DNA of 64,000 nucleotides. Source: a virus. The notes beneath the pieces were generated by a model. The model searched no databases and was not told the origin of the DNA. It saw only the letters and a program-made list of their open reading frames with translations. A program made the position numbers and the translations under genes. Location of the stretch: IMG/VR virus record IMGVR_UViG_3300031519_004866. One strand, written 5' to 3'. This document shows positions 40,808 to 62,782 of the stretch, piece after piece. Each line of letters begins with the position of its first letter. Within the stretch, counting starts at the first letter, position 1.

Positions 40808-42859
40808 TTACTTGGTCGTTGCAATGAAAACTCCATTCCAATCTTCAGGTAAGTCTTGTGTCTTTTGGAATTCACAACGTTCTATCCACATTGTATAATA
40901 GCCTTCTAATTGACCACTAAAGTGTCTTTTTAGTTTTTCACAAATCCAAATTGCTTCATCAAACTTTTGAGCTCTATATGCTTCATACATACGCTGGTGC
41001 ATGTTTTGGCTTTTATATTCAGCTTTTGTGCCTTTAACGTCTAGCACTGTCCATATCCCAATGCCTACAGTTTTTCCTTTAACTGCTAGGTCGTCTATCT
41101 TTAAGTAGAAGAAGTCGTCTTTAGTAGTTTGGTATGTCGCATCTCCAACAAGTAATACACATCCGTACTCTTTACATTTGCTTTCAATACGAGCGGCTGT
41201 ACTAACTGCATCTCCGAGGACATCATAACTGTGTCGGGCTGTTGAACCCATCTCGCCAAGATAGCCAAGACCAGTATTAATGCCAGCCCCCATACCCACT
41301 GGGGGTCTTCCTTCTTTGGTAATCTTATCATTAAATATCTCCACTGCTTTTAACATATCCAATCCACATTGTACCGCCGTTCTAGGATGATGTGGATCTT
41401 CAATTGGTGCATTGTGTATGTGCATACTTGCGTCACCAATATACTTAATAACCATACCGTCTGCATCTAGTATGGGCTGTGTAATAGCGTCCATGTAGCC
41501 ATTCATAATTTTAGTTAGGCCTTTTACATCATCACCAAATGATTCACCTAGTGGAGTAAAGCCTCTTAGGTCTGAGAAACAAATTGAAACTTCTTTCTTC
41601 ATACCGTCTTTGATTAGTTCAGGATTTTCTTGTAGTAGTCTTACTACTGTTGGTGATGCATATCCAGCGAACTGTTTCTTAATTGCTTGTTTTTGGAAAT
41701 ACTCGTTTACAAATCGGTTAAACACTGCATGAAAGCCAACAAATGTACTTACTAGTAGTACCCAACTAACGTCCCATAGCTGTAACTGCCCTTTAAACAG
41801 CGTGTAAGCACCGTACAAGCACGTTGCATATATCACAAGTAGCAATGCTCCAACTACATAATACGGTGCAAAAACAGCAGCAATTATAAGAATAACACCA
41901 ATTGCAATAGATGCAATGTACTCTACAAATGTAGCATAATCAAAACGTACAATGTTATCTCCACTAATAATAGTTTGGAGAGCTGTTGCTCCTGCAACAT
42001 GACTATACATTTCTCCTTTTGGAGTACCAATCACACCTCCTAGTCCTTCTGCTGTTATACCAATAATAACAGTTTTTCCTGCTAGACTAGAGTAGTCTTC
42101 ATTTGCAGCACTAAGTGTGCTAAACTCTTTATTCCAACGCAACCAAATTCTAGCATTTGGGTCTGTTTTAATAGTTGCATACGCAGGAACTCGTAACGCA
42201 ATAATTCCGCCTGGTCCTGTTTTAACTTGATAACTAGGATCTCCAACAGCAACTCTAATAGTTTCTAATGCAATTGCAGGATATACTTCTTCTCCTACTC
42301 TCATCAACAATGGCATACGTCTTACAACACCATCGATCTCTGGAGCAGTATTAATAACACCAACACCAGCAGCAACATCGCCTAACTCAGGTATAGGTCC
42401 AAGCATGCCTGGCCACTCAAATAACCAAGGAAACGGATCTCCTATTTTAGCAACACCTCTTGGCACTGCATTTTTGTTTGTTTGAGTTGTTCCTACTTGT
42501 GCAATAACAACACCGTTGTCTTTAAGTGCAAAAACTAAATCGTTGTCGCCTTGCAATCTATCTGACTCAGAAAACAGTATTGGCATTACAATAATACCAG
42601 CGCCTGCTTCTCGCAATTTGTAAATAATATCTGCTAGTACATCACGCTTCCAAGGCCACTGTCCGTATTGCTGTATAGACGCTTCGTCTATTTCTAGTAT
42701 TGCAACATCTTGAGATTGTTCTGGAGTGTCGTACTGTTGTATAAGATCAAATGACTTCAGTCGCATTGTTTCTTTAACAAAAGGATCATTAAATCCTAAA
42801 ATGCTAATAACAGCCAATGTAATTACTGCTGTGAACCAATGTGTAATATATTTGCCCAT
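40808..42859 (-). CDS. CHASE2-domain class III adenylate/guanylate cyclase
   Basis: N-terminal TM; IDEASIQQYGQWPWKR and DGVVRR (CHASE2); three TMs; FSDLRGFT, KYIGDA, GAGINTG, YDVLGDAVSTAARIE. Confidence 0.93.
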   Translation of the reverse strand: MGKYITHWFTAVITLAVISILGFNDPFVKETMRLKSFDLIQQYDTPEQSQDVAILEIDEASIQQYGQWPWKRDVLADIIYKLREAGAGIIVMPILFSESDRLQGDNDLVFALKDNGVVIAQVGTTQTNKNAVPRGVAKIGDPFPWLFEWPGMLGPIPELGDVAAGVGVINTAPEIDGVVRRMPLLMRVGEEVYPAIALETIRVAVGDPSYQVKTGPGGIIALRVPAYATIKTDPNARIWLRWNKEFSTLSAANEDYSSLAGKTVIIGITAEGLGGVIGTPKGEMYSHVAGATALQTIISGDNIVRFDYATFVEYIASIAIGVILIIAAVFAPYYVVGALLLVIYATCLYGAYTLFKGQLQLWDVSWVLLVSTFVGFHAVFNRFVNEYFQKQAIKKQFAGYASPTVVRLLQENPELIKDGMKKEVSICFSDLRGFTPLGESFGDDVKGLTKIMNGYMDAITQPILDADGMVIKYIGDASMHIHNAPIEDPHHPRTAVQCGLDMLKAVEIFNDKITKEGRPPVGMGAGINTGLGYLGEMGSTARHSYDVLGDAVSTAARIESKCKEYGCVLLVGDATYQTTKDDFFYLKIDDLAVKGKTVGIGIWTVLDVKGTKAEYKSQNMHQRMYEAYRAQKFDEAIWICEKLKRHFSGQLEGYYTMWIERCEFQKTQDLPEDWNGVFIATTK

Positions 42860-57185: not shown

Positions 57186-57469
57186 GTCTTTTTAGGTTGT
57201 TTTGGATACTTTTCTTTCCAAAACTGTAGTATTGCACCATCTCGGGTGTACCATATAAAACGATTAGGAACTATCCTTAGATGCCAAGGGTAAGGACGAC
57301 TCTTCATGTCCGTCCAACTTTCTGTTCTTTGTTGGCACCAAGGCCATATGCTAGATCCAATCCTTGTAAGACCAACACAGGCGGGGTACTTTGAATTTTT
57401 ATGTAATTCATCTAAGATGCTGCTTTGGGTCAATAATTTATCTTTGCACGTAAAATATGTGAAGTCCAA
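57182..57469 (-). CDS. Hypothetical protein
   Basis: 95 aa, TTG start; no motif. Confidence 0.45.
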   Translation of the reverse strand: MDFTYFTCKDKLLTQSSILDELHKNSKYPACVGLTRIGSSIWPWCQQRTESWTDMKSRPYPWHLRIVPNRFIWYTRDGAILQFWKEKYPKQPKKT

Positions 57470-58031
57470 TTCGTCCTACTAGCAACATGTCATCATTCCA
57501 TTTAGGATCAACATAAGTTGCATGATAGTGTGTGGCGCCTTCTGCAATGCCACGTAGGTAGTCGTTTTCTAACATTCGATATGCTATAGTTTGTGCCTTG
57601 TTCCAAGAATCGCCCGATGCAGGTTCGTCAGCTTTGCCATCACAGAACCAACTGAACTGACACTTGTTACGGATTGGAATATACTTCCTTTCAGAATCAT
57701 GTAATTCTGGAAATTGTTTTGTTTTCCAACTCTCTTTCATTTTTGCTTGTTTGATAACATCGCAAACAGTGTTTGGGTAAACTGTACTTTCTACCCTGTT
57801 TAGTACTACGTCTGATACTGCTGCCATTCCAGCCAAGTTATCACTTCTTGATTCATAATATATATTAAGAGCAAGACAGTACGCTTCTGGGTGTTGCTTT
57901 TCTGTAAACAGCTCTTGCTCAATCTCTTTAGAATTAGTGCTATCCATTTGTGTTGATGCAACTAATACAGTGGTTTTAAACATAACAGAAATTGCAATAA
58001 TTCCAGCGATAGTTTTAGTAAGTTTTTTCAT
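57438..58031 (-). CDS. SleB/Hydrolase_2-family cell wall hydrolase
   Basis: CLALNIYYESR, AVSDVVLNRV...PNTVCDVI, CQFSWFCDG, GATHYHA.YV.P.W, IG.HIFY; signal/TM N-terminus. Confidence 0.9.
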   Translation of the reverse strand: MKKLTKTIAGIIAISVMFKTTVLVASTQMDSTNSKEIEQELFTEKQHPEAYCLALNIYYESRSDNLAGMAAVSDVVLNRVESTVYPNTVCDVIKQAKMKESWKTKQFPELHDSERKYIPIRNKCQFSWFCDGKADEPASGDSWNKAQTIAYRMLENDYLRGIAEGATHYHATYVDPKWNDDMLLVGRIGLHIFYVQR

Positions 58032-58872: not shown

Positions 58873-59487
58873 TTAGAAGTTAACGTTAAACGATACAACT
58901 GCTTCTCTGTCAGTTCTATTAAAGTCTGTGTCCATTTGCTGTAACACTGCTACATTTACTGTAGTAGTAGAAGTTACACCATATGAAAGACCAACTTGTG
59001 CAAATGCATCTGCTTCATCAAAATCCATAAAGTCGCCTTTAGAAGATTTCCAATCATAGCCTACTTCAGCATATGGAGTTACAATACCCATATCAAATGC
59101 TGCGCCAACAACTGGACTAAATCTTAACTCGTCTTTAGTTGTTGAATCACCAGTTGTGTAGTGAAGCTCTGGAGTAGCATAAAACGATACTCTAGATGGT
59201 TCTAACTCGTCTTGTGTAGTAGTAAAAGTTTTACCAACTGTTAAACGATAATCTTCAACAGCATCGTTGTCGATAAATTCAAGACCTACTGTTGCTGTAC
59301 CAAAGTCGTGAGCTACGCCAAAAACGTTTGCTTCGTGACTAAAATCACTGTTTGCACCAGTACCTACTGAAAAGGTTGTGTTGTCTCTAGAAAGGTTAAT
59401 GTTTACCCCTGTCTTGTCAAAATTATCAGCTTGTACTGCGGTTGCCATTAATGCAACTGCTGCTGCTGTTATTAGTATTTTATTCAT
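58873..59487 (-). CDS. Outer-membrane beta-barrel protein
   Basis: Signal peptide (AVQA), alternating amphipathic strands, C-terminal SFNVNF (terminal Phe BAM signal). Confidence 0.75.
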   Translation of the reverse strand: MNKILITAAAVALMATAVQADNFDKTGVNINLSRDNTTFSVGTGANSDFSHEANVFGVAHDFGTATVGLEFIDNDAVEDYRLTVGKTFTTTQDELEPSRVSFYATPELHYTTGDSTTKDELRFSPVVGAAFDMGIVTPYAEVGYDWKSSKGDFMDFDEADAFAQVGLSYGVTSTTTVNVAVLQQMDTDFNRTDREAVVSFNVNF

Positions 59488-59605: not shown

Positions 59606-60184
59606 CTAAACTTTCTCGTTGTTGATGTTCTTAATAAACTCAAACGTCTCTGTATGAGTTTTCAAAAAAGCTAAACAGTTTTCCGGAGCGGTTTCGCCAT
59701 ACGGATCATCGTCTAAGCCTTCGTTGTTAATGCCAGGTTCCTGCCACCACTGTTCTACTACGCCATCGTTAACGATAGCCATGTATCGCCAGCTACGTAA
59801 ACCAAATCCCAAATGGTACTTTCCAATTAACATACCCATAAATCGGGTAAAGTCGCCGGAGCCATCTGGAATAACTTTAACACGTTCGATGCATTGATCT
59901 TTGGCCCATTTGTTCATAACAAATGCGTCATTGACACTCATGCAATAAATGTCGTCAATTCCCATTTCACAAATTTTGTTGTAGTTCTCTTCAAAACCTG
60001 GTAGCTGATACGTTGAGCAAGTAGGTGTAAATGCACCCGGCAAACTGAATAACACTACACGCTTACCTTTAAAGTAATCGTCTGTTGTCATGTCTTGCCA
60101 ACGGTATGGGTTTGGTCCTTCAATTGTTTCGTCACGAACTCTTGTCTTAAAAGTAACGTGTGGAATTTTAAAGCCTGCAATCAT
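59606..60184 (-). CDS. Peroxiredoxin (Prx5/PGdx-type)
   Basis: KRVVLFSLPGAFTPTCS, SVNDAFVM, PDGSGDFT, RSWRY. Confidence 0.93.
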   Translation of the reverse strand: MIAGFKIPHVTFKTRVRDETIEGPNPYRWQDMTTDDYFKGKRVVLFSLPGAFTPTCSTYQLPGFEENYNKICEMGIDDIYCMSVNDAFVMNKWAKDQCIERVKVIPDGSGDFTRFMGMLIGKYHLGFGLRSWRYMAIVNDGVVEQWWQEPGINNEGLDDDPYGETAPENCLAFLKTHTETFEFIKNINNEKV

Positions 60185-60796: not shown

Positions 60797-61882
60797 CTAC
60801 AAACTGTTAACGTTGTCAACCATATTGTAAGGATCAATGTCTAAATACTTGCCCCACTCACTGTAGTAATGACGCATACCAACTTCATCATGAATTGTTT
60901 CGTTCTCATGACGTCCGTGTAATACGTTTCTACGTTCAGTGCCTGGAGCCATTGCTACACCCTGTCCACTTACACCTAACAAGTCTTCGTGCAAGTTACG
61001 GCCAAACGGTCCCCATATAGTGTTGTGATGATCTATACGTTGCTTACGTTCTTCAGGTGTGTCTTTTAACAAGCCATATCCTCTAAACTCTATAAGCACA
61101 CTGTTAGGTCCTAGTGGAGTAACACTATCACTACGGAAAGCACTTCCACGTAGGTTAAAGTTAAAGCCTGGAAACAAGTCTACCATGTACCACTGATTGG
61201 GTGGTAGGGTAGGAAAACTTAATGCTTCTCTATCTCCTGCTCCTTCGTATTGACCGTACTGTACTGTGAAACTACTTACGTTTACATGTCCGTTATCAAA
61301 CGCAATGTTCTTACGTGCAAAGTATTCATCATTAAATCCTGTTACACGATTAAAGTAATGCATAAAGTCGTGATAGAATTCACTGTTAGTGTCGTGCCAT
61401 AGTTTGTAGTTTGTTGGAATGATTGCTTTATGATAATGGAACACTTCTAGTTCTTCAGTGTCAATAGCACCAGCAATACAATCAAATGCTCCTGCGGTCC
61501 ATTCTTCTACATTCATGCTTGGATTAGGATCTAGTGTTACCCATACCATGCCTCCGTGTTTTACTTCGCAGTATAGTTCTTCTACATCACTTAGTAATAA
61601 TTCATAAGGGCTTGTATTACCTGCTACACCTTTGATACCTGGATTCATAAAAGCTCTAACTCGATCTCCATGATTTACTATAATTATATTTCGAAATGCA
61701 ATCTGAGATGTTCTGTAATCACCTATTTCTTTTATTTCGCTTTTGTGTATAACAGGTACCCATACTTTAGCAAAGATATTTTTAATCTCTTCTTCGTATA
61801 TTTTTTGACTAGAATATATTTCGCTACTTACTGCTTCTACTGGTGGTACTGACAACCAACTCTTGTGGTTACGTGGTGGCAT
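60797..61882 (-). CDS. msmA: Ring-hydroxylating oxygenase alpha subunit, methanesulfonate monooxygenase MsmA-like, lacking the Rieske motif
   Basis: NYKLWHDTNSEFYHDFMH and GPFGRNLHED mononuclear-Fe ligands plus NQWYMVDLFPG resemble MsmA as recalled; no CxH or CxxH anywhere; start 61882 fits the GGAG SD. Confidence 0.7.
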   Translation of the reverse strand: MPPRNHKSWLSVPPVEAVSSEIYSSQKIYEEEIKNIFAKVWVPVIHKSEIKEIGDYRTSQIAFRNIIIVNHGDRVRAFMNPGIKGVAGNTSPYELLLSDVEELYCEVKHGGMVWVTLDPNPSMNVEEWTAGAFDCIAGAIDTEELEVFHYHKAIIPTNYKLWHDTNSEFYHDFMHYFNRVTGFNDEYFARKNIAFDNGHVNVSSFTVQYGQYEGAGDREALSFPTLPPNQWYMVDLFPGFNFNLRGSAFRSDSVTPLGPNSVLIEFRGYGLLKDTPEERKQRIDHHNTIWGPFGRNLHEDLLGVSGQGVAMAPGTERRNVLHGRHENETIHDEVGMRHYYSEWGKYLDIDPYNMVDNVNSL

Positions 61883-61981
61883 AAACATTTCTCCTTTTAC
61901 AATGTTATTTAATATATAATAACACCAAAAAAGAGAAAAGTCTAATTGTTTGTTCCTATAAGCTAATAGGTACTAGTTAAC

Positions 61982-62056
61982 TGGCATGCGAGCAGGGATT
62001 CGAACCCCGACTAACGGTTTTGGAGACCGCTGTGCTACCATTAACACCACTCACAT
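61982..62056 (-). tRNA. trnW: tRNA-Trp(CCA)
   Basis: ATGTGAG/CTCGCAT acceptor stem, anticodon arm GCGGT-CTCCAAA-ACCGT, GGTTCGAATCC, discriminator G, encoded CCA. Confidence 0.92.
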
Positions 62057-62430: not shown

Positions 62431-62717
62431 AAGTGCAACTTTTCTGTTGCCAGGTAAGTTGCCAACCCCTACGTGCTTAGTTAGACTAAGCCGCTAATGC
62501 CATTCCTGGCGCTGTATTTGCGTTTGCATTTACAAAGTTTGTTCGCGGTAACGGCGCTTACATCCCGGTAACTCCACTAACTCTATTAAACACCAGTCGA
62601 TCCTGTGTCGCCCCCATCAAAAATACATTCACAGTTTAATAGCAGAATGTATTTTTGGTGGAGGCGTCGGGTACTGCCCCCGAGTCCTGTATGCCGTTTG
62701 AATTGCTTCAACGTTAC
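62431..62717 (-). ncRNA. ssrA: Permuted two-piece tmRNA (alphaproteobacterial type)
   Basis: Acceptor piece ends CGCCTCCACCA at 62656, then a hairpin spacer, then coding piece starting GGGGGCG at 62615; G3.U70 pair; tag ORF 62527-62486 = ANANTAPGMALAA*; outer ends approximate. Confidence 0.9.
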
Positions 62718-62759
62718 GATAGTATTTATAATATAACATCAAGCGAGCAACAAGTCAAG

Positions 62760-62782
62760 AAAAAAGGGCCGAAGCCCTTTTT
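62760..62782. terminator. Bidirectional intrinsic terminator
   Basis: AAAAAAGGGC-CGAA-GCCCTTTTT; UUCG tetraloop on the minus strand, downstream of cspA. Confidence 0.8.

Follow-up and report, generated by a model that had tools for sequence, protein, structure and literature searches.

A phage-borne MsmA-type alpha subunit without a Rieske site and a possible division of two metal centers between alpha paralogs in SAR116

Judged from its sequence, the window, i.e., the whole 64-kb stretch of DNA analyzed here, is part of a large phage. Its proteins match PHROGs, and its nearest record is an IMG/VR virus fragment (G001), from which the gene described below is absent; a megablast search of window positions 40–64 kb against phage records matched the tRNA-Trp only. 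The gene of interest encodes an oxygenase alpha subunit of the MsmA type, for which PHROGs holds no family (Table 1). It is preceded by a tRNA-Trp and by a permuted tmRNA, the latter being consistent with an alphaproteobacterial host; for this phage, the host is presumably SAR116. On the downstream side, the SleB-type hydrolase and two small neighbors are common to the window and to phage loci L003 and L028.

Table 1 Features of the window discussed in the text, in window coordinates.
Feature	Position	Strand	Details
CHASE2 + adenylate/guanylate cyclase protein	40808-42859	-	683 aa; strong phrog_35576 match
SleB-type cell-wall hydrolase	57438-58031	-	downstream neighbor
Predicted outer-membrane beta-barrel protein	58873-59487	-	downstream neighbor
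Peroxiredoxin (Redoxin/AhpC-TSA)	59606-60184	-	downstream neighbor; phrog_2281
ORF of 143 aa	60406-60837		downstream; no Pfam or PHROG match and no counterpart in related phage loci
Rieske-less MsmA-type alpha subunit CDS	60797..61882	-	361 aa from second ATG
H300-E301-D302	60983..60991	-	D302 presumed iron ligand; invariant in alignment A1
E170-F-Y-H173-D-F-M-H177	61358..61381	-	presumed bridging Glu and two His iron ligands; invariant in alignment A1
Variable Cys-free 22-residue linker (residues 83-104)	61577..61642	-	alignment to canonical MsmA
Shine-Dalgarno AAGGAG	61891..61896	-	8 nt 5' of ATG at 61882; read from sequence
TAAATA motif	61906-61911	-	about 24 nt 5' of oxygenase start codon
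tRNA-Trp	61985-62056	-	upstream of oxygenase gene
Alphaproteobacterial permuted (two-piece) tmRNA	62432-62762	-	upstream of oxygenase gene; Rfam RF01849, 142 bits; tag ANANTAPGMALAA

The reading frame of the oxygenase is intact and could also be opened further upstream, at 61888, which would give a protein of 363 aa (60797..61888, minus strand). Translation from the second ATG, at 61882, yields the N-terminus MPPRNH..., and the homologs all begin with MP(P/A)RNH. Because this N-terminus agrees with that of every homolog and a good ribosome-binding site lies 8 nt ahead, the 61882 start is the likelier one, and the 361-aa coding sequence is favored over the 363-aa form. Residue numbers throughout are those of the 363-aa form (P0001).

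We then delimited the segment in which a Rieske cluster would be expected. In the window protein, RAFMN ends at residue 82 and LYCEVKHGG begins at residue 105, and the 22 residues between them (PGIKGV...SDVEE) take the place of 67 residues that include CPH-X26-CMFH in canonical MsmA. Motif inspection and alignment found no CxH...CxxH Rieske ligands in the N-terminal domain, and the CXH-X26-CXXH motif that serves as the MsmA signature (PMC4433239) is absent from the protein, whose only cysteines are C107 and C137. A first, sequence-only reading of the locus had described a cleanly missing Rieske motif replaced by unrelated residues, a protein with two cysteines, an intact frame with a good Shine-Dalgarno sequence and a catalytic domain with its iron ligands in place, and each of these points was borne out. 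For the catalytic domain, the alignment with CntA sets ECYH opposite EFYH (residues 170–177 reading EFYHDFMH) and the Asp of PEDL opposite HED (residues 300–302). We take these two CntA motifs to contribute the bridging Glu, one His ligand and the Asp ligand. By this alignment, the 2-His-1-carboxylate site and the bridging acidic residue are intact in the window protein (E170, H173, H177, and D302), and all four residues are invariant across the phage and cell copies of alignment A1.

Profile and structure comparisons placed the protein among ring-hydroxylating oxygenases. PF00848 was the sole Pfam family detected (residues 145–349, 24.1 bits against a cutoff of 24.9, E = 3.8e-5), and PF00355 gave no match in the window protein. 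Over residues 19–83, the protein aligns with the initial strands of the Rieske domain in CntA, IadD, GbcA, and aromatic dioxygenases, and this alignment ends precisely where CxH would start; in NCBIfam, partial N-terminal matches to GbcA, HcaE, and BenA were far under the cutoffs of these families. An AF2 model built from 58 sequences reached a pLDDT of 85.5 and a pTM of 0.86, with a pLDDT of 89–98 for the N-terminal beta-sandwich base (residues 21–90), and matched ring-hydroxylating oxygenase alpha subunits with TM scores of 0.68–0.74.

A protein search yielded 1,214 homologs; the top 120 are 327–398 aa long and 70–100% identical to the window protein. When these 120 were considered together with the query, the E..H...H and HED motifs were kept in 120 of the 121 proteins, and the Rieske motif was found in none. 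The window gene is under purifying selection: against phage relatives, dN/dS (Nei–Gojobori) was 0.20 (dS 0.60), 0.135, 0.135, and 0.08.

A scan of species-representative genomes divided the relatives into two classes. Long forms (413–423 aa, 53–58% identical to the window protein) carry CPH-X26-CMFH, come from Hyphomicrobium, Filomicrobium, Methyloligellaceae, Xanthobacteraceae, and others, and lie in an operon of the order msmA-msmB-msmC(Rieske ferredoxin)-msmD(Fer2-FNR reductase). Short forms (349–364 aa, 68–78% identical) come mostly from single-cell and metagenome genomes of SAR116 (Puniceispirillales), one of them from a 606-kb contig. Kinship to MsmA, as first proposed, was confirmed, the nearest full-length relatives being MsmA proteins with CXH-X26-CXXH; at the Filomicrobium insigne MsmA locus, identity is 57% overall and 72% in the catalytic domain. 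The short form itself is not confined to viruses, a finding that the first reading had named as counting against it: SAR116 genomes carry ~71% identical short forms in msm-type clusters, so that it is also an ordinary cellular gene, and these cellular copies rule out a virus-specific deletion. Nor did the deletion arise in this particular virus. Maximum-likelihood analysis grouped the main short forms, phage and cellular, in a single clade (SH-aLRT 100) embedded among canonical MsmA sequences, which places the Rieske deletion as one event on the main short-form clade.

One short form fell outside this clade. P0122 (L097 1457-2533) is a divergent 358-aa protein of more canonical appearance that keeps a remnant of the Rieske region (...IVERRPRG...) and a KFGGFVWV motif, and its contig is phage-like, with an Mtd_N tail-fiber gene. 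It may be basal to the main short clade or represent an independent Rieske loss.

The cellular short forms have a conserved setting. On the 606-kb SAR116 contig (L011), the gene order starts with an NMT1-like binding protein, an 815-aa fusion of Rieske, Pyr_redox_2 and Reductase_C parts, and a Ring_hydroxyl_B beta subunit, continues with a Rieske ferredoxin, a 274-aa unknown protein, the short MsmA, LysR, and a TauE sulfite exporter, and ends with a PanB-like gene, formate-THF ligase (FTHFS), and FolD. This order recurs in 12 or more loci, and a 2.75-Mb single-contig genome has the same type of order with an inserted molybdopterin oxidoreductase trio, a set named dmsABC or soeABC in the SAR116 literature. 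We hereafter refer to the short MsmA (~362 aa, the ortholog of the phage gene) as S and to the ~800-aa MsmA paralog as F. Clusters with S and F also hold an MsmB-like beta subunit, an MsmC-like Rieske ferredoxin, sulfite dehydrogenase-like genes, and C1-tetrahydrofolate enzymes, a neighborhood that fits an enzyme yielding sulfite and a C1 unit.

Two further observations concern these clusters. The gene directly preceding short MsmA in SAR116 (L011 4921-5745) encodes a protein of ~275 aa that belongs to no Pfam family, has homologs in L062, L034, L064, L067, and others, and also has homologs of ~30% identity in canonical msm clusters; it looks like a conserved, uncharacterized msm-associated protein. 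In G002, the fusion and the short form are each present in two copies, on contigs C45 and C16 (L083 and L087), reflecting either a genuine duplication or a bin of mixed origin.

The F paralog mirrors S. Its N-terminal 400 residues are an MsmA paralog and its C-terminal part is a Pyr_redox_2/Reductase_C ferredoxin reductase. CPH-X26-CMFH is retained in 13 of 13 F fusions; in the same 13, EFYHDFMH is deleted or altered to KFHQDFMK and the segment bearing GRNLHED is missing, which removes both His ligands and the Asp ligand. Sequence identity in the Rieske segment is 95% among F proteins and 85% between F and canonical MsmA, and S has lost most of this segment. For the catalytic domain, the corresponding values are 47% (F–F) and 40% (F versus canonical), compared to 92% among S proteins and 73% between S and canonical MsmA. 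S, in turn, combines the E-x2-H-x3-H...D iron site with a vestigial Rieske-fold base devoid of [2Fe-2S] ligands. On the strength of these motifs, each paralog keeps the overall alpha-subunit layout with one metal site only, i.e., the iron site in S and the Rieske site in F, and the two metal centers are therefore predicted to be divided between two alpha paralogs. An AF2 model of the N-terminal 405 aa of F, from a 13-sequence alignment, had a pLDDT of 38, too low for use. The two parts are unfused in one genome (G003:C5:71188-73571, L085), where neighboring ORFs encode the Rieske-only paralog (341 aa) and the reductase (491 aa).

S and F also tend to occur together. Both were present in 14 of 192 SAR116-order genomes, usually 2–12 kb apart, and single occurrences in this set were limited to one genome with S only (G124), one with a partial F only, and one with canonical full-length MsmA only. 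Co-occurrence thus extends to 14 of the 16 genomes holding either paralog, and canonical MsmA and S were never found together in the genomes examined. The branching orders inside the cellular S clade and inside the F clade look congruent in the tree.

We next considered how the pair and its phage-borne half may have come about. Close relatives of the window protein lie on contigs of 57–340 kb rich in phage-type genes, and the cellular SAR116 short-form clade (SH-aLRT 99) sits within phage-borne lineages. AU tests rejected both S plus F as an exclusive sister clade (p = 1e-4) and a single clade of phage-context copies (p-AU 0.008), each result being weakened by long branches and by groups that were named after the tree had been seen. 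Since S and F are not recovered as sisters, the pair is not simply an in-place duplication, and a simple tandem duplication of msmA with subfunctionalization within SAR116 is unsupported; the pair may instead have been put together by transfer. Similarly, the rejected monophyly of the phage forms implies several phage–cell transfers, and, together with the nesting of the cellular clade in phage lineages, it suggests that the Rieske-less half may have spread through phages, or may even have entered SAR116 from them.

No partner gene accompanies the phage copies. By tblastn, a beta subunit, a Rieske ferredoxin, a reductase, and a Rieske-bearing paralog are all missing from the entire 64-kb window, msmB, msmC, and msmD homologs included, which extends the initial remark that none was nearby; the other phage loci examined lack a beta subunit, a Rieske ferredoxin, the F paralog, and the 274-aa neighbor. 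The genes that do adjoin short MsmA in phages vary. A NifU_N/IscU-like gene lies just downstream in one lineage (L094-L096 9102-9482) and an Fe-S_biosyn/IscA-like gene just upstream in a different one (L097 1072-1470), a curious neighborhood for a subunit with no Fe-S cluster of its own. On a 244-kb phage-like contig (L100 925-6607), a TRAP set (three DctP, DctQ, and DctM) and a cold-shock gene precede short MsmA.

In canonical alpha3(beta3) Rieske oxygenases, electrons reach the iron of an alpha subunit from the Rieske center of the adjacent one via a bridging acidic residue, and the residue presumed to play this part in S, E170, is invariant (A1). In the simplest reading, S, F, and beta would assemble as a hetero-oligomer; alternatively, F might dock onto S as a built-in Rieske-plus-reductase donor. 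Electrons would travel from NADH to the FAD of the F C-terminal part and on to the Rieske ferredoxin, then to the Rieske center in the F N-terminal part and across the subunit interface to the Fe(II) of S, the site at which methanesulfonate would be converted to sulfite and formaldehyde. SAR116 and its phages would then share a split Rieske oxygenase in which no alpha subunit is complete, F contributing Rieske center and reductase and S the iron, and activity arising only across the hetero-oligomer interface, a model that we advance tentatively and with slightly less than even confidence. This model leaves the S:F stoichiometry unexplained, since perfect alternation of S and F is impossible in a three-fold alpha ring.

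As the phage brings S alone, its gene would raise or replace the catalytic subunit of the host F/beta/ferredoxin machinery in infection, and phage S could thereby sustain sulfite, with energy gained by sulfite oxidation, as well as the C1-THF flow. Overall, we consider the window gene to be probably a phage auxiliary metabolic gene (AMG) for the catalytic mononuclear-iron half of a SAR116-type methanesulfonate monooxygenase (MSAMO), dependent on F, beta, and ferredoxin from the host. A phage with only the catalytic half of an enzyme can be likened to psbA in cyanophages. Whereas the sequence anatomy, complementary losses, co-occurrence, cluster context, purifying selection, and fold are results of this analysis, the assembly of S with F, the substrate oxidized, and any gain for the phage are inferred. 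The sequence-only reading had envisaged mixed trimers with host MsmA: mixing with host subunits is compatible with the host clusters, but the likely partner is the Rieske-only, reductase-fused paralog and not a normal MsmA.

Other explanations have to be weighed against this dependence on host partners. S may be an enzyme that works independently of any Rieske center, taking electrons straight from ferredoxin or from a small reductant, for example, or one that acts on another substrate, with the SAR116 cluster context being coincidental to mechanism. Such an enzyme could account for the S of G124, which lacks F, for two SAR116 layouts in which S is 10–12 kb from F and not adjacent to it, and for phage copies whose neighbors are unrelated genes, in two lineages among them genes of Fe-S assembly. 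We nonetheless hold it unlikely, given the co-occurrence of S and F in all but two of the genomes with either, a catalytic domain 72% identical to that of true MsmA, and the invariance of the presumed bridging Glu, which links the neighboring Rieske His to the iron His in Rieske oxygenases; moreover, the ligand-less yet structurally conserved catalytic domain of F would be hard to explain unless it serves assembly.

A second alternative, raised at the outset, is a dominant modulator: phage S would displace host S or poison the complex, shutting down or redirecting methanesulfonate oxidation. A poison subunit would need no intact iron site, whereas conservation in this protein is highest in the catalytic domain and no catalytic residue, the presumed bridging Glu included, varies between phage and cell copies, which makes this role quite improbable even though the phage brings one subunit only, a hetero-oligomeric enzyme would allow subunit swapping, and phage and host S are just ~71% identical. 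Finally, a decaying relic or a broken msmA carried passively, as the loss of a cofactor site normally held essential might suggest, is extremely improbable in view of the intact frame with its good ribosome-binding site, the confident fold prediction, and the shared length class of the homologs, and a pseudogene or assembly artifact, like the relaxed selection named at the outset as a possible objection, is ruled out by the 1,214 homologs, the dN/dS of 0.08–0.20, and the same short form in conserved cellular operons. A host-dependent catalytic half remains our preferred reading of the phage gene.

Oxidation of dimethylsulfide in the atmosphere yields methanesulfonate as a major product, and msmA serves as the marker gene for this compound. 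In surveys and AMG catalogs, the short forms of viruses and SAR116 are tallied as "MsmA" despite the missing, supposedly essential cofactor site. The viral gene, its missing Rieske motif, its presence in SAR116, and its purifying selection are already published: the absence of the Rieske motif was pointed out in 2015 (PMC4433239), a citation of HMO-2011 msmA followed in 2016 (PMC4928673), and a 2021 report described viral msmA AMGs with dN/dS < 1 (bioRxiv 10.1101/2021.01.05.425418), so that the viral link to the sulfur cycle, initially thought to be new, had been described before. The 2015 study regarded the F-type protein of IMCC1322 simply as the motif-bearing MsmA and the short protein as the one lacking the motif, and it emphasized that the motif is intact in every proven MSA degrader (PMC4433239). 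In the literature searched, we found no demonstration of MSA oxidation by a SAR116 strain or by a short form and, with incomplete coverage, no description of iron-site loss in F or of S/F complementarity; the complementary Rieske-only, reductase-fused partner seems to be unreported.

Should the short form need F, the 2015 puzzle of how a Rieske-less MsmA functions would receive a concrete, testable answer, and marker-gene counts would require both halves for predicting activity. The host functions on which the phage AMG depends would likewise be defined, and the system would offer a natural case of an inter-subunit electron path made into an obligate two-gene arrangement.

Compared to known systems, the window protein is most distant from the solved alpha subunits CntA (6y8j), TPADO (7q04), NagG (7c8z), and IadD (8h2t), which are alike in overall alpha-subunit fold but have just 14–19% sequence identity to it, and every one of which has its own Rieske cluster, unlike the window protein. 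Canonical MsmA, as encoded in the msmABCD operons of Filomicrobium, Hyphomicrobium, and Methylosulfonomonas, shares with it the iron motif NYKLWHDTNSEFYHDFMH...NLHED and the MPxRNH N-terminus, whereas the 67-residue CPH-X26-CMFH segment and the adjacent msmB, msmC, and msmD have no equivalent at the phage locus. The cellular short MsmA of SAR116 is closer still, being ~71% identical, of the same architecture, and in the same clade as the phage forms; it adjoins the Rieske-only reductase fusion, beta, Rieske ferredoxin, TauE, and C1-THF genes, whereas the phage copy stands alone. A further parallel is gp61 of Puniceispirillum phage HMO-2011, which infects SAR116 (NC_021864, 47357-48439, annotated as "methanesulfonate monooxygenase"). 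This 360-aa protein is 68% identical over 97% of the window protein, likewise lacks the Rieske segment, has the same iron motif, and is phage-borne without partner subunits, and the window gene shows all features of this viral msmA type, i.e., phage-borne, Rieske-less, ~350–365 aa, with an intact iron site and under purifying selection. The two differ in genomic context, HMO-2011 being a 55-kb phage with another gene neighborhood and the window belonging to a much larger phage, and in the tree, where HMO-2011-type copies are basal and the window protein falls in a clade from large phage-like contigs.
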